DNA of 64,000 bases from Bacilli bacterium (GCA_017441845.1 JAFRVB010000008.1:46143-110142); one strand, 5' to 3'. Positions 45,229 to 58,712 are shown, numbered from the stretch's first letter. Translations and numbers: made by a program. Notes: a model not told the origin generated them from the letters alone.

Positions 45229-45968
45229 TTTGAACTCACTTCCTCACGAACTAAGTACGCAACCGAAATGTTATCTGTTCCACCCCTATTATTAGCTTTA
45301 CTAATAAGCTTATTAACCTTTTCTTCTACAGTATCATCTTTATTTAATAATACTTTGCATATTTGATCTTTATCTAACATATTAGTTAATCCATCGCTTG
45401 ATAAAAGTATCTCTGATATATCCATATTACAATCAAAGATATCAACATCAACTTTACTACTAGCACCCAATGCTTTCATAAGTACATTCTTTTTAGGATG
45501 ATGAGTAGCTTCTTCTTTAGTTAACTCTCCTGCACTAACTAATAAATTTACTAACGTATGATCATAAGTAACTTTATGTAGTACGTTATCTTTCATAACA
45601 AAACCACTTGAATCTCCAACATTACCAAATAATAGATAATCTTTAGTTAATATAGCCATAACTAAAGTAGTACCCATTCCCTTACTTTCAGGATTATTTT
45701 TTTCATGTTGAAAAATCAAATTATTAATCTCTTCAAAAGCACTTCTTATCCATTTAACCGCATCTACCTTACTCATATTAACAAATGATTCTTTAAAATG
45801 CGTTGCTAAATAATTAATCGCAATACTTGATGCAACCTCACCAGCACGATGACCTCCCATTCCATCAGCTATTGCCATTAATTGTACTCCCTTACTTTCA
45901 ACTATAACTACACTGTCTTCATTATGATCTCTAACTTTTCCTGCATCTGTTAAATAAAAGGATTTCAT
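45225..45968 (-). CDS. stp: PP2C-family Ser/Thr phosphatase
   Basis: TD.G..R..NED, ADGMGGH, GTT, DGL, DN.S motifs. It overlaps prkC. Confidence 0.9.
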   Translation of the reverse strand: MKSFYLTDAGKVRDHNEDSVVIVESKGVQLMAIADGMGGHRAGEVASSIAINYLATHFKESFVNMSKVDAVKWIRSAFEEINNLIFQHEKNNPESKGMGTTLVMAILTKDYLLFGNVGDSSGFVMKDNVLHKVTYDHTLVNLLVSAGELTKEEATHHPKKNVLMKALGASSKVDVDIFDCNMDISEILLSSDGLTNMLDKDQICKVLLNKDDTVEEKVNKLISKANNRGGTDNISVAYLVREEVSSK

Positions 45969-46984
45969 ATATCTTCCTCCTTACTTCTAAGTTGTCCACA
46001 AGCAGCACTTATATTGCCACCAAATTCCCTCCTGATTGTCACATTAATTCCATTCTTCTTAAGTATATCATAAAAACTACTAATTTGTCTCATTTTACTT
46101 CGTTTAAATTGAATATTTTTAGTTTCATTATAAGGAATCAAATTAACATAGCAATTTCTTCCCTTTAATAACTCACTTAATAGAGTTGCACTACTATCAC
46201 TATCATTAACTCCATCTATCATAATATACTCAATCGTAAGACGTCTATTAGTCTTAGCATAATACTCATCCAATGAAGCCATTAAGTCATCAATAGGATA
46301 AATTTTATTAATAGGCATTATCTTATTTCTAATCTCATCATTAGGTCCATGTAGACTAATTGCTAAATTAACTTGTAAGTCTAAATTACTAAATTCTTTT
46401 ATTTTAGGAATAATACCACAAGTACTAACAGTAATATGTCTAGCTCCAATACTCAATCCATAATTAGAATTAATAATCTTAATAAAACTAATTAAATTAT
46501 CATAATTATCAAAAGGTTCTCCAATGCCCATCACAACAACATGACTAATACGTTCACCTAAACTATTCTCAATCAATAATATCTGTTCAACCATCTCATA
46601 TGCTTCAAGATTTCTTACTTTTTTACGTCTTCCCGACTCACAAAAAGCACATCCCATATTACAACCAACTTGAGATGAAACACATACACTTCTACCATAA
46701 TCGTGCATCATTAAAACAGCTTCAACATGTTCACCATCACTTAACTCAAATAAATATTTAGAAGTATCTTCACTTTTCTCTATCTTAACAATCTTAATCA
46801 TATCCATAGAGAAATCTTCTTTTAACTTACTTATAACCTCTTTTTTCAAATCAGTTATCTCGTCAAAAGAATTAATCTTCTTATCATACAACCATCTAAA
46901 TATCTGTTTAGCATGAAATTTCTTTTCACCAATTTCTTCTAAATATTTTTCTAAGTTTTCTAAATCTATTCCATATATATTCAT
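45965..46984 (-). CDS. rlmN: 23S rRNA/tRNA (adenine-C2)-methyltransferase, radical SAM
   Basis: KKFHAKQIFRWLY, CNMGCAFCESG, GMGEP, C-terminal CGQL. The start is set to ATG 46984 (MNIYGIDL); the track start is TTG 47002. Confidence 0.9.
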   Translation of the reverse strand: MNIYGIDLENLEKYLEEIGEKKFHAKQIFRWLYDKKINSFDEITDLKKEVISKLKEDFSMDMIKIVKIEKSEDTSKYLFELSDGEHVEAVLMMHDYGRSVCVSSQVGCNMGCAFCESGRRKKVRNLEAYEMVEQILLIENSLGERISHVVVMGIGEPFDNYDNLISFIKIINSNYGLSIGARHITVSTCGIIPKIKEFSNLDLQVNLAISLHGPNDEIRNKIMPINKIYPIDDLMASLDEYYAKTNRRLTIEYIMIDGVNDSDSSATLLSELLKGRNCYVNLIPYNETKNIQFKRSKMRQISSFYDILKKNGINVTIRREFGGNISAACGQLRSKEEDI

Positions 46985-46995
46985 ACTTAAATTAT

Positions 46996-47023
46996 AAAAC
47001 AAAAACTAGCATATTGCTAGTTT
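46996..47023 (-). terminator. Terminator closing the HEPN-like/242-aa unit
   Basis: aaactagca-tat-tgctagttt, with an A-rich run on plus upstream giving a T-run on minus. It abuts the stop at 47022. Confidence 0.6.
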
Positions 47024-47750
47024 ATTGTAATGGATTATCTATCTTTTCAACTTTACCTATATCATAGTATTTTAAATGAATATTTAAGTTCTTTTTACAT
47101 AGCTTCATAGTAGTACAATAACTACTTAAATCATAACTAATAGTACTTATAACACCAGCTTCATCATAAGAAATACTAATCTTAACAGGATCATCGCTAT
47201 AATCAGTAGTTTTATCATCAATTATTTTATTAATATTATTAATACTTATTAATAAGAATAATTCTACTCTACCATCGTTATAAGTAATATTATGATCTAA
47301 TGTAGCTTCTTCTAATATTTTGTCTATATAAGCTAAATTATAAAACTTATAGAATTTACTACATTCATCACTTTCAATCCATTTTAGATTTTCATATTTA
47401 AAAAGACCATCTTTATTACGAAAATATTTATTAGTAATTTTTCCATTACTACAAGTAAATTCTTCTCTATCTTCATTAATTTTTCCATTTATTTTTATAA
47501 CAGTATTATCATGAATAACACCATAATTATAAGCATAATTAAATTTTAATAAATCTACTATATTAGCACCATTATCTTTATTATTAGCATTTCTAATATC
47601 TTCTAATTGTTTTTCTAAAGGATAATGAGCAGAAGTTCTAGCAATAACCATTAAAATTAGCAACAATAAAGCAAAACCTATAAAAAACCATATAGCTTTT
47701 CCTCTTTTACTATCACTAGTTTTTTTTATGAAATCAATTGCTTCTTTCAT
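47022..47750 (-). CDS. N-terminally anchored hypothetical protein (242 aa), co-transcribed with the dual-RNxxxH protein
   Basis: TM segment AIWFFIGFALLLLILMVIA followed by about 190 extracytoplasmic residues. There is a 30-nt gap to the upstream ORF with no terminator between them. Confidence 0.45.
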   Translation of the reverse strand: MKEAIDFIKKTSDSKRGKAIWFFIGFALLLLILMVIARTSAHYPLEKQLEDIRNANNKDNGANIVDLLKFNYAYNYGVIHDNTVIKINGKINEDREEFTCSNGKITNKYFRNKDGLFKYENLKWIESDECSKFYKFYNLAYIDKILEEATLDHNITYNDGRVELFLLISINNINKIIDDKTTDYSDDPVKISISYDEAGVISTISYDLSSYCTTMKLCKKNLNIHLKYYDIGKVEKIDNPLQ

Positions 47751-47780
47751 TATAACTCCTTATCATAACAATTATATTAC

Positions 47781-50561
47781 TTATCTAGTATGTTGTCTAC
47801 TTCCTATATCTTTAGTTTCCAAATTCAATTCAATTTGATGAGTAAGTTCAACCAATTTATTAATATCCATAATAATATTAAAATTATTATGTTGATCGCG
47901 ATCAGCTTTATCATACAAATAAACTTTATCTTCTACTATATTACCATCTTCATCTTTAACAGGTTTAAATCTAAAATGACATATAGAATTTCTCATCTTA
48001 TCTAAAATATTATTTTTTAATGATTCATCAGTTCTTTCAGTACCTGTTCCATCTAAAGTAAATTGTCTTAAATAAGTTGTGTCATCCATATCTACATCAG
48101 TAATATTATTTTTATATTTCATTGTATCTCTAACGCAAGAAAGTATTATTTGTAATGGAGTTTCGTCAATAAGATCATAATCAGCATTTTCTTTTTGATA
48201 GTTTTTTAATACACTATCACAATAAACTAATGTAGCAATTAATTTTGGATTATTAATACCAAATATACTTTTAGCAAGATTTTCATTATAATTTTTATAC
48301 ATTTCATCTACTAATGCAGAATCACACTCAAAGAATTCTTTAGGTAATTTTTTCAAACGTTCATAATCATCATCAACCAAATCCAACAAATAATTTATTC
48401 TATCAACTAAATCATCATCAACATAATGACCCCTTTCACCACATTTTTCCAAATAAACGTCATAAGAAAATTGATTTACATCTATCCCATTATTAAAAAG
48501 AGTTGAAACTAAATCTGGTAAGTAAAAAAAACCACTATCTAACTTATAAATATCTATCCCTTGATCAGACAAGTAAATTGTCTTTTCAGAATTTGCTAGA
48601 GCTTCTTTAGGGAGATTATAAATATTAATTTTTTTATGTTTTAAATCAATAATTTTATCTGCATAAAGCAAGGAATCATATGGAATTTGACAAAAATCTA
48701 TTCCTTCTTTTATTAATTGTATAGCTTCTTGGGGATGCTCAAAAGCACCAAAAGGTAAATTATAAATATTTATACCTTGGTTAAATAATTCTAAAGCAGA
48801 TTCAGAATTATAAAACGCTTCTTTAGAAATACTATAAATATCTATTCCAGCATCTCGTAATTTTAAAACTTCATCAGGATATTCAAAGGCAATATCAGGT
48901 AAATTATAAATATCTATTCCATTTTCAAATAATTCGATAGTAGATTTTGAATGTGCAAATGCTTTATTGGGAATATTATATATATCTATTCCGAGCTCAA
49001 ATAATCTAATAACTTCTTTAGCAAAGTAAAAAGCATTATATGATAATTTATAAACATCTATTTTTTTATCATGCATATCAATAACATCTTGTACATTGAT
49101 AAACGCAGTATCCTTCAACCTATATATATCAAAACCTTTATTTTTTAATAATACGACATTTTCAGGAAATTCAAAAGCACCAAACTCGATATTAGTAATA
49201 TCTATACCATTATCCTGCAAAAAAAGTGTTCCTTCTCCTTTTACATATGCAATATATGGTAATTGAGACAATTCATTAATTTTTATACCTCTTGCTAACA
49301 ATTTTGCTGTTAATTTAGGATATTCAAATGCTTCAAAACATAAATCGTTCATGTTAATATTCAATTCATTAAATAACAAGGTGGCTTGAGGAAAATAAAA
49401 AGCACATTCCGGTAATTCCATCAAGTTAAGACCTTTATCAAAAAATAGTAGTGTTGTATCAATATTTTTAAAAACACTAGAAGGTAATCCCTTAATATCA
49501 ATCTCTTTCTTAATTAATTTTTTAGTTCCATCATAATTATCATATACAGTACTAGGTAAATTACTTATATCGACTCCTTTTTCATACAAATCAACAGCAC
49601 ATTCTGGATTTTTAAACACTGATATATTTAGACTATTTATATCCTCCAAGCTAATACCATGTTCAAACAAATATCTAAAACCTTCTTCATTATTAAAAAT
49701 ATTTATATTTAACTCATATAGTTTATCATAATCATAATCCAACAATTCAAGTAAATAGTTTAAATAACATGGTTCAACATTATAGAAAAAACTTTCTACT
49801 TTTTTTACATCGTAACCAAGTTCTTTTAATATTGAAGATGATATAGTGCTAGTTTTTTCTACTAATATTTTATCTTCCTCGTAAGCTATTATCCTTCCAT
49901 TAGTTAATCCATTTACGTATTCAATTGGTATTTTCACACTAAAGCCATTTTCATTTATAAACATTTCATTATTTATATCAGCAGTGCCATGTTGGATAGC
50001 ATTTCTTAATTTATGGATTATATTAATAGATTGTTTTAATACGTTTACAGCTTCTAACTTTTCTATCTCATCATTAGAATTTTCTAGCTTTACCCAATCA
50101 ATTTTACTATAAATTTCTATCGCTTCTTTATAGTTTCTTAACAACTCTCTTTTTGCATTAACTTGAACCTTAAATGCAGCTTTTTCTTCTTCAATTTTCA
50201 AATGTTCTTCAGTATTAGTTGCAGCATCGTGTTTACTTGCAATTCTATTAAGTTCATCTTTCATATCATTTAATTCTTTAAGAAATTTATCATACTCTTG
50301 ATATAAAGTATCATTCTCTTTTATATATTCACCCAAAAAAATAATATTCCAAATATCATTATAATTATTTAAATCAAAGATTAAGTTGCTTCCTTCTTTT
50401 CTAATAATAAGTTCTTTTCTTTTTATAAAGCGCGAAATAACACTCTTAAAATACGGATCTCCACTACTAAACATTCCATCCCTTCCGAATAAAATGTTTT
50501 CAGTTTCTTCCATGCCGTTAGCTGATATTACATTTTTAGCAACTTCATATAATCTTGACAT
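47781..50561 (-). CDS. Cytoplasmic 926-aa protein: HEPN-like RNxxxH motif - ~17 x 24-aa solenoid repeats - HEPN-like RNxxxH motif
   Basis: KLRNAIQHG (R186/H191) and KMRNSICHF (R857/H862). Central units resemble GIDIYNLPDIAFEYPDEVLKLRDA. No signal peptide or TM segment. Family unknown to me. Confidence 0.5.
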   Translation of the reverse strand: MSRLYEVAKNVISANGMEETENILFGRDGMFSSGDPYFKSVISRFIKRKELIIRKEGSNLIFDLNNYNDIWNIIFLGEYIKENDTLYQEYDKFLKELNDMKDELNRIASKHDAATNTEEHLKIEEEKAAFKVQVNAKRELLRNYKEAIEIYSKIDWVKLENSNDEIEKLEAVNVLKQSINIIHKLRNAIQHGTADINNEMFINENGFSVKIPIEYVNGLTNGRIIAYEEDKILVEKTSTISSSILKELGYDVKKVESFFYNVEPCYLNYLLELLDYDYDKLYELNINIFNNEEGFRYLFEHGISLEDINSLNISVFKNPECAVDLYEKGVDISNLPSTVYDNYDGTKKLIKKEIDIKGLPSSVFKNIDTTLLFFDKGLNLMELPECAFYFPQATLLFNELNINMNDLCFEAFEYPKLTAKLLARGIKINELSQLPYIAYVKGEGTLFLQDNGIDITNIEFGAFEFPENVVLLKNKGFDIYRLKDTAFINVQDVIDMHDKKIDVYKLSYNAFYFAKEVIRLFELGIDIYNIPNKAFAHSKSTIELFENGIDIYNLPDIAFEYPDEVLKLRDAGIDIYSISKEAFYNSESALELFNQGINIYNLPFGAFEHPQEAIQLIKEGIDFCQIPYDSLLYADKIIDLKHKKINIYNLPKEALANSEKTIYLSDQGIDIYKLDSGFFYLPDLVSTLFNNGIDVNQFSYDVYLEKCGERGHYVDDDLVDRINYLLDLVDDDYERLKKLPKEFFECDSALVDEMYKNYNENLAKSIFGINNPKLIATLVYCDSVLKNYQKENADYDLIDETPLQIILSCVRDTMKYKNNITDVDMDDTTYLRQFTLDGTGTERTDESLKNNILDKMRNSICHFRFKPVKDEDGNIVEDKVYLYDKADRDQHNNFNIIMDINKLVELTHQIELNLETKDIGSRQHTR
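48460..49700 (-). repeat. In-frame 72-nt (24-aa) tandem repeat array, about 17 diverged units
   Basis: GIDIYNIPNKAFAHSKSTIELFEN / GIDIYNLPDIAFEYPDEVLKLRDA / GIDIYSISKEAFYNSESALELFNQ / GINIYNLPFGAFEHPQEAIQLIKE / ... read from the translation. Confidence 0.75.
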
Positions 50562-50582
50562 ATTATCACTTACCTTAAATTA

Positions 50583-50591
50583 ATTATAACA
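50583..50591 (-). promoter_or_regulatory. Extended -10 promoter (TGtTATAAT) of the HEPN-like gene
   Basis: The reverse complement of attataaca (50583-50591). It lies between the fmt terminator hairpin and the ATG at 50561. Confidence 0.45.
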
Positions 50592-50598
50592 TACATAA

Positions 50599-50640
50599 TA
50601 AAAAGATAGTTAACATTCAAACTAACTATCTCTTTTTTTA
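50599..50640. terminator. Hairpin terminator after fmt
   Basis: agatagtta (50604-50612) / taactatct (50623-50631). T4 follows on minus and T7 on plus. Confidence 0.55.
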
Positions 50641-50648
50641 CAATTAAA

Positions 50649-51578
50649 CTAATCATTTAATTCTTTATCTAATAATTCCTCTTTTTTAATACCATTTAAA
50701 TAACTAGAAACTAACATTTTCTTTTTACCAAACGGTTGTATCTCTTCTAAGATTATTTCTCCATCCTTACAAGATATACCTATACCATCTTTATATATTT
50801 TATTAATTACTCCAATATTATTATATTTTTCAGTACCTATTCTAGTTTTAAATACTTTGCATCTATTACCATCCATCATAAAATAAGCACCTATCATAGG
50901 AGATAATCCTCTAACTAAGTTATTTATTTCTTCTGATGTTTTATTAAAATCAATATGTTCTTCTTCAGGCTTAATATTATAAGCATAAGTCACTTCATTC
51001 TCATCTTGTTTAATAGATTCATTAGTACCTTCAATTATACTAGGTAAAGTTTTTAATAATAAGTCTCTACCTAATACACTTAATTTATTAGATACTGTCT
51101 CTAAATTATCATTTTCTTCTATACTAATTTTCTCTTGAGAAATAATATTACCAGTATCCATACCTTTATCCATATACATAATAGTAATACCAGTCTCTTT
51201 ATCACCATTAATAATAGATCTATGTATTGGAGCCCCACCTCTATATTTAGGTAGTAATGATGCATGTACATTAATACATCCATATTTAGGATAATCTAAT
51301 ATTTCTTCTGGTATTATTTGTCCATAAGCACAAGTTACTATTAAATCAGGTTTTAATTCTAATACTTCTTGGTATTCTTTCCTAATTTTTATAGGTTGAA
51401 TAACTTTAATATTATTTTTTAAACCTATTTCTTTAGTAGGAGTAGCAGTTAATACTTTTTTTCTTCCTACTTCTTTATCTGGTTGACTAACTATCCCTAC
51501 AACATCATAATTCTCTATTAAACCATTAAGTACATTACAAGAAAATACCGGTGTTCCCATAAATACTACTCTCATCAA
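50649..51578 (-). CDS. fmt: Methionyl-tRNA formyltransferase
   Basis: VVFMGTP.F.......L, INVHASLLPKYRGGAPI, C-terminal beta-barrel domain. Confidence 0.9.
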   Translation of the reverse strand: MMRVVFMGTPVFSCNVLNGLIENYDVVGIVSQPDKEVGRKKVLTATPTKEIGLKNNIKVIQPIKIRKEYQEVLELKPDLIVTCAYGQIIPEEILDYPKYGCINVHASLLPKYRGGAPIHRSIINGDKETGITIMYMDKGMDTGNIISQEKISIEENDNLETVSNKLSVLGRDLLLKTLPSIIEGTNESIKQDENEVTYAYNIKPEEEHIDFNKTSEEINNLVRGLSPMIGAYFMMDGNRCKVFKTRIGTEKYNNIGVINKIYKDGIGISCKDGEIILEEIQPFGKKKMLVSSYLNGIKKEELLDKELND

Positions 51579-51587
51579 ATCACCTTC

Positions 51588-52655
51588 TCATAAAAATAAT
51601 ATTAAAGTTACAACAACCCCTAATGTTATTAATATTGATCCAGCAATTATAAATGTAGATACTACACCTTCACTATTAATCTTTATCTCTTCAGGTGTTT
51701 CCTCTATCTTTTCTTTTAAATTATCAATATTTAAAAACTCTATATCTTTAGAATCAATATCTTTATTACATATAACATTATTATAATTATTATTAATTAA
51801 TCTATCTAAAATAATAAAATAATCTTCTTCTTTAAATTCATCAATAAATTTATCTAAATCTAATTTATTATTATCAATAACTTTTCTTTTAACTAGAATA
51901 AAACTACTATTATTATAATTATCATTATTTAATAATTTCCATTCTCTATTAAACACATCTATAATTTTATTACTATCTTCTAAAGAAATATTTAATTTCT
52001 TAATAACTTTATTAATATTATCTAAACAACTCTTATAATCTTTCTTAACATAGCAATCTTTATCATTAAGATGTTCATCTCCACATATTAAATCATAAAA
52101 GTACATAGGGCTTCTTAATGAATAAAAATAAGCTAATTCCATACTATCAGTAAATACTACTTCATCTAAAGTAAAATCTTTATTAATATAGTTATCTTTA
52201 TATTTATTAAGTATCTCTTTTAACATAATAAAATCATTATATAAATTAGTATACTTATTAATCTTAAATCCATTATTTTTAATACTCTCAGTATATATAG
52301 GACTATAAGCATGTATAAAATAACCATTCTCTATATATTTTAAATATACATATCTAATAAATTCTTCTTTATCAGTAATATTAACTTTATTTACTAAGAT
52401 CATACTAAGTAATTTATTAATACCATCTTTAATACTAAATTCTTTTTCTATTCTTCTAAATAATAAATCTAATTCTACTAAATAATTTTCATAATAACCT
52501 ATATTATCAATTATTAAACTAAATTTATATATTGCATCATAAAAGATTCCAATTAAATCATAATTAGAATACTCTCTTCCTTTATATATTTCATAGGTAT
52601 AAAGTTTATCTATGAATTCTTTTGTGTCATCTCTCTCTAGTAATTCTTTAAACAT
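51588..52655 (-). CDS. Tail-anchored hypothetical protein (355 aa)
   Basis: Soluble N/K/Y-rich body with a single C-terminal TM segment (VVSTFIIAGSILITLGVVVTLILFL). It occupies the slot where def usually lies. Confidence 0.45.
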   Translation of the reverse strand: MFKELLERDDTKEFIDKLYTYEIYKGREYSNYDLIGIFYDAIYKFSLIIDNIGYYENYLVELDLLFRRIEKEFSIKDGINKLLSMILVNKVNITDKEEFIRYVYLKYIENGYFIHAYSPIYTESIKNNGFKINKYTNLYNDFIMLKEILNKYKDNYINKDFTLDEVVFTDSMELAYFYSLRSPMYFYDLICGDEHLNDKDCYVKKDYKSCLDNINKVIKKLNISLEDSNKIIDVFNREWKLLNNDNYNNSSFILVKRKVIDNNKLDLDKFIDEFKEEDYFIILDRLINNNYNNVICNKDIDSKDIEFLNIDNLKEKIEETPEEIKINSEGVVSTFIIAGSILITLGVVVTLILFL

Positions 52656-52936
52656 TAACCAGTACCTCTCATAATAATAAATACTGTTCCAACTATAATA
52701 ATAATCGCTAGAACTAATAGTATTAATCTTACTAATGGATCTTTTTTATCATAATAATCACTCTTCTTAGATCCAGATTCATCCATAAGTTTTTGATAAT
52801 ATTCTTGATTTTTCTTATTAGCTTCTACTTCTTGTCCATCATTTTCAAAAACTATATCTTCTTGTTCACTATTATAATTAGATCCCTTATTATCAAAAAA
52901 TTGCATAGACACACCTCTATTCTCTAATATAAACAT
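52655..52936 (-). CDS. Small tail-anchored hypothetical protein (93 aa)
   Basis: Acidic N-terminus and C-terminal TM segment LVRLILLVLAIIIIVGTVFII. Its stop overlaps the next start. Confidence 0.4.
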   Translation of the reverse strand: MFILENRGVSMQFFDNKGSNYNSEQEDIVFENDGQEVEANKKNQEYYQKLMDESGSKKSDYYDKKDPLVRLILLVLAIIIIVGTVFIIMRGTG

Positions 52937-52967: not shown

Positions 52968-55133
52968 CTATAATATGTGTAAAGGATTAAAGTCAATATC
53001 TATTTTAATATCTTTATTATTTTTATAATGATTATTTATTTTAATTAAGATATCTTTAATATCATTAATATCTTTATATTTAATAATAATAGAATATCTA
53101 TATACATTATTAATCTTATATAGAATAGATGGACTAGGTCCTAGAATAATAGAATTAATATTACGTTCTAAACTTCTTTTAATTTTATTAGCTTCAGTAT
53201 TAGTAATAATATTATCTTTACCACTAATTCTTATATAACAAAGATAATAATATGGAGGATATTTAAGTATTCTTCTAATTTTCATTTCTTCGTTATAGAA
53301 ATCTAAATAATTATTAAGAGAAGCATACTTAATCGCATAATGATCTTTATTAAATGTTTGAATATAAACAGTACCTGATTTTTCAGAGCGACCTGCTCTA
53401 CCACTAACTTGATTTAGTAAAGAGAAAGTATTAAATGATGAATTATAATCAGGTATATTTAATGAAGTATCTGCATTAATTACTCCTACTAATGTAACAA
53501 GTGGAAAATCTAATCCTTTAGAGACCATCTGAGTACCTAATAAAATGTCATATTCATGATTTTTAAATGAATTAATCATCTTCTCATGAGATCCTTTCCT
53601 ACTAGTAGTATCATAATCCATTCTAAGTACTTTTGCATCTACTAATTTTTCTAATTCTTCTTCAATCCTCTGAGTACCTACACCCAAATCATTAATAGAA
53701 GTTTCTCCACATGAAGGACACTTACTAGGTTTAGAATCACCATATCCACAATAATGACATCTCATAGTATTACTACTCTTATGATAAGTTAAACTAATAT
53801 CACAATTAGGACATTTAAATGTATAACCACAATTCTTACAAGTTACAAAGGAAGCATATCCTCTTCTATTTAGTAAAAGGATAACTTGTTCTCCTAAAGA
53901 TACCTTTTCTCTAATCGTATTAATTAACTCTAAAGAGAAATGTCCACTAGCTCTTCTGATTTCTTTATTCATATCAATTATCTTTACTTCAGGTAGACTT
54001 CTTCCATTAACTCTTTCCATTAATTCAAGTAAATGAAATACACCTTTTTTAGCACGAGCCATAGCTTCTAAGGAAGGAGTAGCAGAACCAAATACTACTT
54101 TCGCATTATGATACTCTGATCGAATAAGAGCTACTTCTTTAGCGTTATATCGAGGATTAGATTCACTCTGTTTATAAGAGTCTGAATGTTCTTCATCTAC
54201 TATTATTACTCCAATATCTTTAAGTGGTGCAAATACAGCACTTCTTGCTCCTATCACAATAGATACTTCACCCTTCATAATTCTTCTGTATTCATCATAT
54301 CTTTCACCATCAGATAAAGCTGAATGAAGAGCTGCGATTCTTTTACCAAAACGAGCTACAAATCTATTGATTAATTGCGTAGTTAAACTAATTTCAGGAA
54401 CCAACATTAAAGCAGTTTTACCCTTCTTTAAGTAATAATCAATTAATTCCATATATATTTCAGTCTTACCACTACCAGTAACACCATATATTAAAGATGG
54501 TTTTAAATCCTTATAATTAATTATCTCATCATAAATATCTTTTTGTTTAGGAGTTAATTTATGTATAACTCTCTCAGTATCAGAATAATTTAATCTATAA
54601 GCTTCTCTTTTATCTTCAATTAATACACCTTTATTTAATAAAGTATTTAAACTACTAATACTGATATCTTTTAATTTATCTCTTTTAACAAAATCATTCT
54701 TACATAAATCTATTATTAATTTCTGTTTATCATTAAATTTATAAGTACTTAAATCTATATCATTAACTTTATAATAATATTCATATTTCTTATTAATATT
54801 AGAATTAACTTTAGCTTTTAAAGCTTTAGGTAACATTACTTGATAACAAGATATTAAAGTAGATAAAGTTTTATCTTGTACTACTTTACCTAACTCTAAT
54901 AATTCATCTGTTAAAACAATATCTTTATCTATAATATTACTAATATCTTTTAAATTATCTAATTCACTTGTGTTTTTAACAGCCAAAACAAATCCATTGA
55001 CTATTCTTCTACCAAATGGAACTTCTACTCTAATACCAACTTTTATATCATTAATAAATTTACTTGGTACATTATAATCAAAAGTTTTATCAACGTTACT
55101 ATTACTAATTTCAACTAAAACTTCCGCAATCAT
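52968..55133 (-). CDS. priA: Primosomal protein N' (replication restart helicase)
   Basis: GVTGSGKTEIY, DEEH, zinc-binding CKNCG..CPNC..C.YCG..CPSCG, GTQM..KG.DF. Confidence 0.95.
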   Translation of the reverse strand: MIAEVLVEISNSNVDKTFDYNVPSKFINDIKVGIRVEVPFGRRIVNGFVLAVKNTSELDNLKDISNIIDKDIVLTDELLELGKVVQDKTLSTLISCYQVMLPKALKAKVNSNINKKYEYYYKVNDIDLSTYKFNDKQKLIIDLCKNDFVKRDKLKDISISSLNTLLNKGVLIEDKREAYRLNYSDTERVIHKLTPKQKDIYDEIINYKDLKPSLIYGVTGSGKTEIYMELIDYYLKKGKTALMLVPEISLTTQLINRFVARFGKRIAALHSALSDGERYDEYRRIMKGEVSIVIGARSAVFAPLKDIGVIIVDEEHSDSYKQSESNPRYNAKEVALIRSEYHNAKVVFGSATPSLEAMARAKKGVFHLLELMERVNGRSLPEVKIIDMNKEIRRASGHFSLELINTIREKVSLGEQVILLLNRRGYASFVTCKNCGYTFKCPNCDISLTYHKSSNTMRCHYCGYGDSKPSKCPSCGETSINDLGVGTQRIEEELEKLVDAKVLRMDYDTTSRKGSHEKMINSFKNHEYDILLGTQMVSKGLDFPLVTLVGVINADTSLNIPDYNSSFNTFSLLNQVSGRAGRSEKSGTVYIQTFNKDHYAIKYASLNNYLDFYNEEMKIRRILKYPPYYYLCYIRISGKDNIITNTEANKIKRSLERNINSIILGPSPSILYKINNVYRYSIIIKYKDINDIKDILIKINNHYKNNKDIKIDIDFNPLHIL

Positions 55134-56585: not shown

Positions 56586-58712
56586 TTAAACTAAAGTTAA
56601 ATATCCTCCTTGAGTTGTTGGCTTAGCCATACTTACATCAACAATACTTGAATTAAAGTTAGGTAAGTTACCACAATTATAAAACATTCTAGAAGAAGCG
56701 GTAACATTACTAACATCCCATAAATTTGATATTTTAATCTGTCTTACTTTACTACATCCATCAAACATAAATGCCATATCTGTTACATTAGATGTATCAA
56801 AACTACTTAAATCTAAACTAAGTAATTCCATATCCTTTACATATCCAGTAGTATTATTAGGAGCACCAAACATAGATCTCATATCTGTTACATTGGATGT
56901 ATTAAAACTAGACACATTAAGAGTTTTTAATTCAGTACAATATTCAAACATACTCTCCATCGTAGTTACATTAGATGTATCAAAGTTATCTACTTTTAAA
57001 GTTGTTAAACTGCTACAACCACAAAACATATCTGACATATCAGTTACATTACCTGTATTAAAACTATTTAAATTCAAAGATGTTAAACTGTTACAATGAT
57101 AAAACATATCTGACATATCAGTTACTCTGCTTGTATTAAAGTTTCTTATATCGAGACTTATTAAACTACTACAATTACGAAACATATCTGACATATTGGT
57201 TACACTACTTGTATTAAAGTTGGTTACATCTAAACTTGTTAAACTACTACAGCCATTAAACATATAATTCATTTTTGTTACATTACTTGTATTAAAGTTG
57301 GTTACATCTAGACTAATTAAGTTCCTACAATTATAAAACATATCTTGCATATTTGTTACATTACTTGTACTAAAGTTTGTCAAATTGAGACTTGTTAAAC
57401 TACTGCAACTATCAAACATATATGACATATCTGTTACATTATCTGTATTAAAGTTGGTTACATCTATACTTGATAGACTACTACAATTATAAAACATATG
57501 TGACATATTTGTTACATTATCTGTATTAAAGTTGGTTACATCTAAACTTGTTAAACTTCTACAACCATTAAACATAGACGACATATTGGTTACATTGTTT
57601 GTATTAAAGTTGGTTACATCTAAACTTGTTAAACTTCTACAACCATTAAACATAGACGACATATTGGTTACATTGTCTGTATTAAAATTTGTTACATCAA
57701 GACTAATTAAGTTCCTACAATTATAAAACATATTTGACATATTTGTTACATTGTCTGTATTAAAGTTCGTTACATTTAGACTTGATAGACTACTACAATT
57801 ATAAAACATATAATCCGTCCTTATAGTATTACTGATATTAAAATTAGTTATATCTAAGCTTGTTAAACTACTACAATTTAAAAACAAAGATGACATAGAA
57901 GTCGCATTAATAGTATTAAAGTTAGATACATTAAGACTAGTTAATCCACTACAATTAGAAAAAACTGATGACATATTTGATACGCTAATTGTATTAAAGT
58001 TTGAAAGATCAAGATTTGTTAAGTTTTCACAACTAGAAAACATATATAACATGCTTGTTACTTGACTTGTATTAAATGATAATAAATTCAAATTTGTTAA
58101 ACTACTGCAATAATAAAACATTCTATCCATTTCTGTGACTTTTGATGTATCAAAGTATTCTAAACCATTTATAGAAGCTAGTTTTGATGTTTTACCAGAT
58201 TTATAACTAAAAAACATAGAATCCATACTAGTTACTTTTGATGTATCAAAATTATTATTAAAGTTTATTTCTTCACATTCCATAAATTGATTAAACATAT
58301 AACTTGAATTAGTATTTCCTACTACATCTCCGTCTGATCCTATGTAAAGTTTATAGAAACCACTATTACTCGGATCATCTATTATCCATGCCATAACTTT
58401 TCCAGTATTTGGATTTATTGATACATCCCATGTCTCCACTGCATTTTCCGGTATGTTCTTATTATCTAAAAAATCTACTGATTTAATTTTATCTTTATAT
58501 GTTGAATTATGAAAATCGTCAGAAGAAGTAGAAGACCATCTCATTATCATATTACCAGGATCTTGTACATACTCAACATCTCCAGCAATATTCAAATTTT
58601 GATTTAAAGCACCAAAACCTACACTTACTAGTGTAGTTAAAAAGCATAGTATCGATATAGATACTGTTATATAGAATTTATAACTATTTATATATTTTTG
58701 TAATTGTTTCAT
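56586..58712 (-). CDS. BspA-type / 26-residue-repeat (DUF285-like) leucine-rich repeat surface protein
   Basis: About 18 units of the form FxxCxSLTSLDVTNFNTxNVTNMSxM. The leader ...LVSVGFGALNQNLNIAGDVEY is shared with the 780-aa protein. No sorting signal. Confidence 0.8.
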   Translation of the reverse strand: MKQLQKYINSYKFYITVSISILCFLTTLVSVGFGALNQNLNIAGDVEYVQDPGNMIMRWSSTSSDDFHNSTYKDKIKSVDFLDNKNIPENAVETWDVSINPNTGKVMAWIIDDPSNSGFYKLYIGSDGDVVGNTNSSYMFNQFMECEEINFNNNFDTSKVTSMDSMFFSYKSGKTSKLASINGLEYFDTSKVTEMDRMFYYCSSLTNLNLLSFNTSQVTSMLYMFSSCENLTNLDLSNFNTISVSNMSSVFSNCSGLTSLNVSNFNTINATSMSSLFLNCSSLTSLDITNFNISNTIRTDYMFYNCSSLSSLNVTNFNTDNVTNMSNMFYNCRNLISLDVTNFNTDNVTNMSSMFNGCRSLTSLDVTNFNTNNVTNMSSMFNGCRSLTSLDVTNFNTDNVTNMSHMFYNCSSLSSIDVTNFNTDNVTDMSYMFDSCSSLTSLNLTNFSTSNVTNMQDMFYNCRNLISLDVTNFNTSNVTKMNYMFNGCSSLTSLDVTNFNTSSVTNMSDMFRNCSSLISLDIRNFNTSRVTDMSDMFYHCNSLTSLNLNSFNTGNVTDMSDMFCGCSSLTTLKVDNFDTSNVTTMESMFEYCTELKTLNVSSFNTSNVTDMRSMFGAPNNTTGYVKDMELLSLDLSSFDTSNVTDMAFMFDGCSKVRQIKISNLWDVSNVTASSRMFYNCGNLPNFNSSIVDVSMAKPTTQGGYLTLV
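57531..57686 (-). repeat. Two tandem 78-nt units differing at 1 nt, inside the LRR array
   Basis: 57531-57608 and 57609-57686 are identical except for cattgtttgt vs cattgtctgt. Each encodes one 26-aa LRR unit. Confidence 0.9.

Follow-up and report, generated by a model that had tools for sequence, protein, structure and literature searches.

In Cas13, two HEPN domains within one chain form a single RNase site. The HEPN family pEK499_p136 has been linked to restriction-modification and Pgl operons (PMC3710099). DARNA/PD-T7-3 is a single-gene defence system in which a HEPN RNase is combined with an all-helical C-terminal domain; a product of the phage triggers it, and the outcome is abortive infection (bioRxiv 10.64898/2026.02.22.705581). 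The present analysis concerns a gene for a protein of 926 amino acids (aa) on a stretch of 64,000 nucleotides (nt) from a Bacilli bacterium (GCA_017441845.1 JAFRVB010000008.1:46143-110142), called the window below, with positions counted from its first letter. The gene lies between fmt and a gene for a membrane protein of 242 aa, which is followed by rlmN. Very probably it is a single-gene insert, and its product is a candidate for a stand-alone HEPN RNase of defence. Feature positions are collected in Table 1.

The C-terminal domain resembles pEK499_p136 (PF18736; Anantharaman et al. 2013, PMC3710099) in its profile match and in an RNxxxH motif at the end of a helix, and the family is tied to defence loci. 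Known members are described there in operons with restriction-modification, ART/Macro or Pgl genes, whereas here the domain ends a 926-aa protein with a second Rx4H domain and a repeat array and has no conserved neighbour. LA2681-type HEPN-TPR proteins likewise show a HEPN domain fused to helical repeats (PMC3710099), but the 926-aa protein has 24-residue repeats that are not of the TPR type, and two Rx4H domains. With DARNA it shares the architecture of one gene in which a HEPN RNase, here a predicted one, is joined to a helical non-catalytic domain. DARNA, however, has one HEPN domain and 456 aa and dimerises into a dodecamer (bioRxiv 10.64898/2026.02.22.705581), whereas the 926-aa protein has two motif domains and a hypervariable tandem array.

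The likeness to Cas13 consists of a single chain of about 900 aa with N- and C-terminal RNxxxH motifs, placed roughly as in Cas13b, and extends to the proposed logic, in which a composite HEPN site would be switched on by target recognition. The centre of the 926-aa protein differs, being a regular acidic repeat array and not a lobe binding CRISPR RNA. CRISPR-like arrays were found neither in the 784-kb assembly nor within 4-8 kb of seven homologues, and the periodic repeats detected in this search lie inside DUF285 coding genes. Across Pfam, NCBIfam and PADLOC (library dated 2023), Cas13 family models gave no match and PF18736 was the only match. Identity with Cas13 was rejected because both a CRISPR array and a match to a Cas13 model were missing.

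The extent of the insert was derived from a blastn comparison with the close relative G004, in which the proteins encoded on either side share 85-96% identity with their window counterparts (86% for the fmt product). The two sequences aligned up to 50658 and again from 47761, and the segment between had no counterpart. In G004 the membrane gene directly follows fmt, the two genes overlapping in a GTGA that holds both the stop codon of fmt and the start codon of the membrane gene. Close junctions of these two genes without the 926-aa gene were present in ten contexts (G001-G004, G008, G024 and the four metagenome loci L035-L038), with overlaps of 1-14 nt or a gap of 8 nt. A profile of the 242-aa protein had matches in 90 of the 201 genomes searched in the bacterial family, or 89 of 200 genera, and a profile of the 926-aa protein in 2 of the 401 searched in the order. 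Among 40 relatives, which include the four other genomes of the genus, the 926-aa protein was found in none; the 242-aa protein was present in all four of these and in two further genera. On this comparative evidence, the 242-aa gene is resident and normally coupled to fmt, and only the 926-aa gene is the insert. An earlier note on this DNA had proposed a self-contained two-gene unit, which does not agree with the borders of the insert or with the distribution of the two genes. The genomic conclusions, namely a single-gene insert between fmt and a resident membrane gene, are held with high confidence.

The same arrangement was found at the metagenome locus L016, where the housekeeping flanks are 79-92% identical to those of the window and the 926-aa homologue only 53%. 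The G+C content of the insert is 25.5%, compared with 26-28% in its neighbours. It showed no mobility gene and no evidence of terminal repeats or attC, and only the 4-nt sequence ATGA is common to both borders. An Rfam scan of 45500-52000 returned nothing and no attC-like element. A classical mobile element (insertion sequence, integron cassette, prophage or island) was rejected based on the missing mobility gene, the host-like composition and the lack of a convincing target duplication.

The resident membrane protein has one N-terminal transmembrane segment and an outside domain of about 200 aa, and gave no family match in Pfam, NCBIfam or PADLOC. Between the window and L016 its gene showed a dN/dS of 0.67 and 48% protein identity, compared with 79-92% in the flanking proteins. 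Most homologues share a pair of cysteines. The protein may be located at the surface and subject to diversifying selection.

The 926-aa family is small and unnamed. A word-indexed protein search yielded 28 clusters at 90% identity, and an exhaustive search among 1.84 billion representatives yielded 102 clusters at 50% identity, of which 48 had E values below 1e-30. The window protein was identical on 15 contigs, and its gene is single copy in the window genome (G000), a metagenome-assembled genome of 784 kb in 11 contigs that is 67.5% complete. Homologues occupy five slot types (Table 1), and no neighbour is common to them. Small open reading frames (ORFs) adjoining the homologues had no family match. 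At four distinct places other than the fmt-rlmN region, no membrane-gene homologue lay within 4-8 kb. A two-gene cassette as proposed in the earlier note would occur and move as a pair; each gene was found without the other, and when they stand side by side either order is possible. The 242-aa gene has the same place in close relatives that lack its supposed partner, so that the outcome named in the note as refuting the proposal was in part observed. In a tree of the conserved protein ends, homologues grouped by slot, suggesting few old insertions followed by descent and loss and not frequent hopping. The tandem paralogues of L021 (2719-8775), dual-Rx4H repeat proteins of 1076 and 924 aa, were sisters in this tree. 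Judged from this grouping, the pair is a local duplication with divergence.

The same gaps also hold other cargo. In G024 and L038, the gap from the membrane gene to rlmN is occupied by a gene for a DUF285 leucine-rich-repeat (LRR) surface protein. In two genomes of the window's genus, G001 (L012) and G002 (L011 3806-7199), this gap holds about 3.4 kb of other cargo, comprising ORFs of 729 and 136 aa and one of 236 aa on the opposite strand; Pfam gave no match to any of the three. The metG/tatD gap of the window genome (G000 contig C3:1809-3776) encodes a 655-aa DUF285/BspA-like LRR surface protein, a paralogue of the product of the 708-aa gene at 56586-58712 of the window. From these gene orders, gaps between housekeeping genes seem to be common landing places for DUF285 and 926-aa-family cargo.

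Twenty homologues that share 24-54% identity with the window protein were aligned, and the alignment divided the protein into three parts, with a conserved N-terminal domain of about 295 residues, a centre of variable length and a conserved C-terminal domain of about 210 residues. R186 and H191 of the first Rx4H motif and R857, N858, S859 and H862 of the second were invariant in the alignment. The C-terminal domain matched the Pfam model PF18736 (HEPN pEK499_p136) over residues 844-910 with E 3.3e-6 and 27.3 bits, a narrow margin above the curated cut-off of 26.6 bits. Nine of 12 homologous C-terminal domains matched this model at E <= 1. When the profiles of the two end domains were compared with hhalign, their motif helices aligned over 12 columns with a probability of 46%, and one of eight N-terminal domains matched PF18736 weakly (E 0.036). 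The N-terminal domain is a probable second HEPN domain according to these motif and profile comparisons.

The centre of the window protein consists of about 17 tandem repeats of 24 residues, each modelled by AF2 as two short helices with pLDDT above 90. The mean pLDDT of the whole model was 81. Positions 1-4, 7, 11, 12, 19 and 21 of the repeat form a conserved scaffold, and positions 9, 10, 13, 14, 16, 17, 20 and 22-24 are variable. No Pfam repeat model, TPR included, matched the repeats of the window protein. The arrays carry an acidic net charge, from -4 to -30, which disfavours base-by-base reading of RNA or DNA and favours a protein ligand.

Variation was concentrated in the array. In the clade of the metG slot, the protein ends are 83-99% identical, while the arrays of three allele groups are 38-45% identical between groups and comprise 366, 391 and 445-478 residues. 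L020 and L025 come from close hosts (MetG 95% and TatD 92% identical); their DNA is 89-92% identical up to about residue 290 and from about residue 680, and the array between does not align. Between the window and L016, the 926-aa gene showed a dN of 0.33 and a dN/dS of 0.37, compared with a dN of 0.06-0.13 in neighbouring housekeeping genes. In the homologue P0015 (1031 aa), the central region had a Pfam match to DUF285 (PF03382, E 3.8e-6), a slight sign that the helical 24-residue repeats are linked, or have exchanged, with the DUF285 repeats of the surface proteins.

The combination of catalytic-looking conserved ends, a specificity-like variable centre and a rare, patchy and partnerless distribution points to a stand-alone, sensor-gated HEPN RNase used against phages or other invaders. 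For this function, deduced from sequence and by analogy, the balance is close to even, with at most a slight lean in its favour. The explanation as a whole, a single-gene insert encoding a stand-alone sensor-gated HEPN RNase in defence or conflict, is the one we favour with some reserve. Its genomic part follows from comparison. The family consists of uncultured Bacilli with small, low-GC genomes, in which rsmB is mostly not found. Their string of priA, two small genes and fmt runs on into the fast-evolving membrane gene and is closed by a terminator before rlmN. In the lineage of the window genome and L016, a gene of about 2.9 kb was inserted exactly between fmt and the membrane gene. With it came a hairpin, the TGnTATAAT motif and, ahead of the now uncoupled membrane gene, a ribosome-binding site preceded by a promoter-like element; the insertion would have broken the translational coupling to fmt, and the new element would drive the membrane gene instead. 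The inserted gene would work alone. Its two Rx4H end domains would pair into one composite HEPN RNase site, as in Cas13, and the acidic hypervariable helical array would serve as recognition module. When a specific foreign macromolecule binds, most probably a protein of a phage, the geometry of the array would change, the RNase would be switched on and the infected cell would stop growing.

Several observations weigh against this explanation. The host is uncultured, and the activity, the ligand and the phage phenotype are predicted ones. The N-terminal domain is tied to HEPN only by its motif, the 12-column profile match and the one weak Pfam match, and its stand-alone AF2 model was poor (pLDDT 52). 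A pTM of 0.43 leaves the relative placement of the two ends unfixed in the model of the whole protein. Foldseek searches with this model, nearly half of which is the repeat array, gave no match at E <= 0.001 in PDB and BFVD, HEPN included; in PDB the lowest E value, 0.026, belonged to a designed helical repeat peptide binder. PDB profile searches with the N- and C-terminal alignments gave chance-level matches only. The 926-aa product had no match in NCBIfam and none in PADLOC-DB v2 (0 families at E <= 0.1). Proteins of the family have between about 10 and about 17 or more repeats, which sits poorly with a fixed geometry needed to bring the ends together. The grouping of the gene tree by slot indicates rare movement between sites, and the insert has host-like G+C and no mobility genes.

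A more specific version appears doubtful. The protein would be a CRISPR-independent Cas13-like enzyme, in which the Rx4H ends come together as an active RNase site only once the solenoid has closed on a specific molecule of the invader. The array would be exchanged between strains while the ends stay constant, giving an innate immune receptor without an NTPase switch. A variant in which the array reads RNA base by base, in the manner of PUF or PPR repeats, is scarcely credible because the arrays are acidic.

The pairing of the HEPN protein with the membrane protein as a two-component module, comparable to Cas13b with the membrane protein Csx28, would explain why the two genes are adjacent in four distinct contexts and in both orders (window, L016, L017 and L021) and why both evolve much faster than their neighbours. 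Their distribution, however, separates them. The membrane gene is far more widespread than the HEPN gene in the profile searches and is coupled to fmt in the ten contexts without it, and HEPN homologues at the four other places have no nearby membrane-gene homologue. The slot between the membrane gene and rlmN also takes unrelated cargo such as DUF285 proteins and the 729-aa gene, so that adjacency is explained by a permissive slot. The module is largely refuted by the distribution of its two genes and is very unlikely. A HEPN-MNT (HepT/MntA) or other two-gene toxin-antitoxin pair was rejected, since no neighbour is common to the five slot types.

The 926-aa protein could instead be a lineage-specific housekeeping RNase for processing or quality control of rRNA or tRNA. 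Three of the five slot types adjoin translation genes (fmt/rlmN, metG/tatD/ksgA and alaS), the gene is on the same strand as its immediate neighbours in most contexts, and its G+C is host-like; in genomes of about 1 Mb, however, most neighbours are housekeeping genes anyway. An occurrence in two genomes of the order and the absence from the four other genomes of the genus are difficult to reconcile with such a role, and a hypervariable centre and a high dN are unexpected for such an enzyme, which makes this role quite unlikely. The gene could also bring the host no benefit, either as a selfish or addictive toxin or as a decayed repeat protein without catalytic activity; the Rx4H motifs would then be remnants or serve binding only. 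This would suit the patchy distribution, a lone gene with no recognisable partner and a HEPN fold that lacks structural confirmation. This reading is opposed by the strict invariance of both motifs in the alignment, a long ORF that is intact in every homologue examined, a dN/dS indicative of purifying selection and the identical protein on 15 contigs; no antitoxin-like neighbour is common to the contexts. We regard a selfish or decayed gene as unlikely. The sensor-gated RNase remains the preferred reading.

The signals around the insert that were described in the earlier note are present. The hairpin after fmt was present, with a T-run and a folding energy well below that of shuffled sequences. 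It was missing from the listing of a simple terminator scan because its loop is too long and its G-C pairs are too few. This region is shared with L016, where the insert is also present, at 85% conservation and has no counterpart in G004; the hairpin is a plausible intrinsic terminator that came with the insert. The extended -10 motif ahead of the 926-aa gene was found as TGTTATAAT, and its counterpart at the same place in L016 is TGGTATAAT. The whole junction between fmt and the 926-aa gene, including the hairpin and TGnTATAAT, lies within the sequence 85% conserved between the window and L016. In this region of 27% G+C, 47 promoter-like matches were found, compared with 54.9 expected from shuffled sequence; the motifs alone therefore carry little weight, and the extended -10 gains weight from its conservation in L016.

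Folding confirmed that the 30-nt spacer between the 926-aa and 242-aa ORFs has no stable hairpin. The promoter-like element TAGACA-17-TATAAT sits within a stretch of more than 30 nt that is identical in the window and L016, while the 926-aa homologues themselves are only 53% identical, and the junction with the membrane gene is 90% conserved. This predicted promoter may restore expression of the membrane gene after the insertion. The terminator before rlmN exists as described, but it does not close a cassette. It is kept almost base for base in G004, which lacks the insert, and is also conserved in L016; it therefore ends the resident operon of fmt and the membrane gene. Of the accessory cassette once suggested for this housekeeping operon, an accessory gene with its own promoter- and terminator-like signals remains, as one gene and not two. 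The rlmN ORF was called from a TTG at 47002 and thus overlaps this terminator, while its orthologues open at residues equivalent to the ATG at 46984. The true start is probably this ATG, so that the terminator is intergenic.

The canonical Firmicutes order is priA-def-fmt-rsmB-rlmN-prpC-prkC-rsgA-rpe. On the minus strand of the window, the order is priA, a 93-aa ORF, a 355-aa ORF, fmt, the 926-aa ORF, the 242-aa ORF, rlmN, prpC, prkC, rsgA and rpe. The shared genes follow each other as in the canonical order, whereas the window's family has two small genes and the 242-aa membrane gene in the places of def and rsmB. The 93-aa and 355-aa ORFs (51588-52936, in the priA/fmt interval) have the same place in relatives with 26-80% identity, and the 355-aa product, like the 242-aa product, had no match in PADLOC or NCBIfam.

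The earlier note had placed the insert in an rsmB slot. An RsmB-type methyltransferase domain above the family cut-off was found in none of the five genomes of the genus, including that of the window. Among other genomes searched, rsmB was detected in one of 15 from the same family and in all ten from other families of the order and class, and adjacency of fmt-rsmB or rsmB-rlmN was seen in two loci from other families of the class. As rsmB was not found across the genus, it was not displaced by this insert and was probably lost long before the insertion. Three genomes of the genus have def at another place in the genome. The window's assembly, 67.5% complete, yielded no def, which may reflect its incompleteness.

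Table 1. Features of the window around the inserted gene, and gene orders at the loci that carry 926-aa homologues.
Feature	Position or locus	Strand	Evidence or remark
priA	52968-55133	(-)	
fmt (methionyl-tRNA formyltransferase), resident, upstream of insert	50649-51578	(-)	Pfam Formyl_trans_N E 5.9e-40, Formyl_trans_C E 4.2e-24
Inserted segment, about 2.9 kb, one ORF only	47762-50657	(-)	blastn against close relative G004
Hairpin and T-run after fmt	about 50600-50635	(-)	folding energy -12.8 kcal/mol, z = -3.78 against shuffles
Extended -10 motif TGTTATAAT ahead of 926-aa gene	50583-50591	(-)	read in sequence
926-aa gene: N-terminal Rx4H domain, 24-residue helical repeat array, C-terminal HEPN domain	47781-50561	(-)	
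First Rx4H motif, R186-N-A-I-Q-H191	49989-50006	(-)	R186 and H191 invariant in 20 homologues
About 17 tandem 24-residue two-helix repeats, consensus GIDIYKLPxxAFxNPExTIxLxxx	48417-49649	(-)	repeat phasing
Second Rx4H motif, R857-N-S-I-C-H862, in C-terminal HEPN domain	47976-47993	(-)	R857, N858, S859 and H862 invariant in 20 homologues
Promoter-like TAGACA-17-TATAAT across last codons and stop of 926-aa gene and spacer	47771-47799	(-)	11/12 match
AAGGAG ribosome-binding site ahead of membrane gene	47756-47761		
242-aa resident membrane-protein gene	47022-47750	(-)	
Terminator-like hairpin before rlmN	47003-47023	(-)	folding energy -11.4 kcal/mol, z = -4.1
rlmN	45965-46984	(-)	Pfam RlmN_N, Radical_SAM
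Slot fmt / 926-aa homologue / membrane gene / rlmN	window, L016		
Slot fmt-membrane gene / 926-aa homologue / rlmN	L017-L019		reversed order
Same slot with two tandem 926-aa-family paralogues	L021		
Slot metG / 926-aa homologue / tatD	L020, L025		
Slot 195-aa ORF / 926-aa homologue / nucleotide kinase-alaS	L023		
Slot ppdK-91-aa ORF / 926-aa homologue / nadD	G324		

The apparent cassette consists of one inserted gene and one resident gene, and in these genomes of roughly 1 Mb accessory genes have settled repeatedly in the gaps beside fmt, rlmN, metG and tatD. A small unnamed protein family joins two HEPN-type motifs to a regular array that varies like the specificity domain of an immune receptor. 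If the sensor-gated RNase is real, it would be a compact one-protein system, whose recognition part could be studied, and perhaps exchanged, apart from the catalytic ends. The defence library PADLOC returned nothing for this gene, which would also represent a candidate defence family for gut and rumen Bacilli that are known from metagenomes only.

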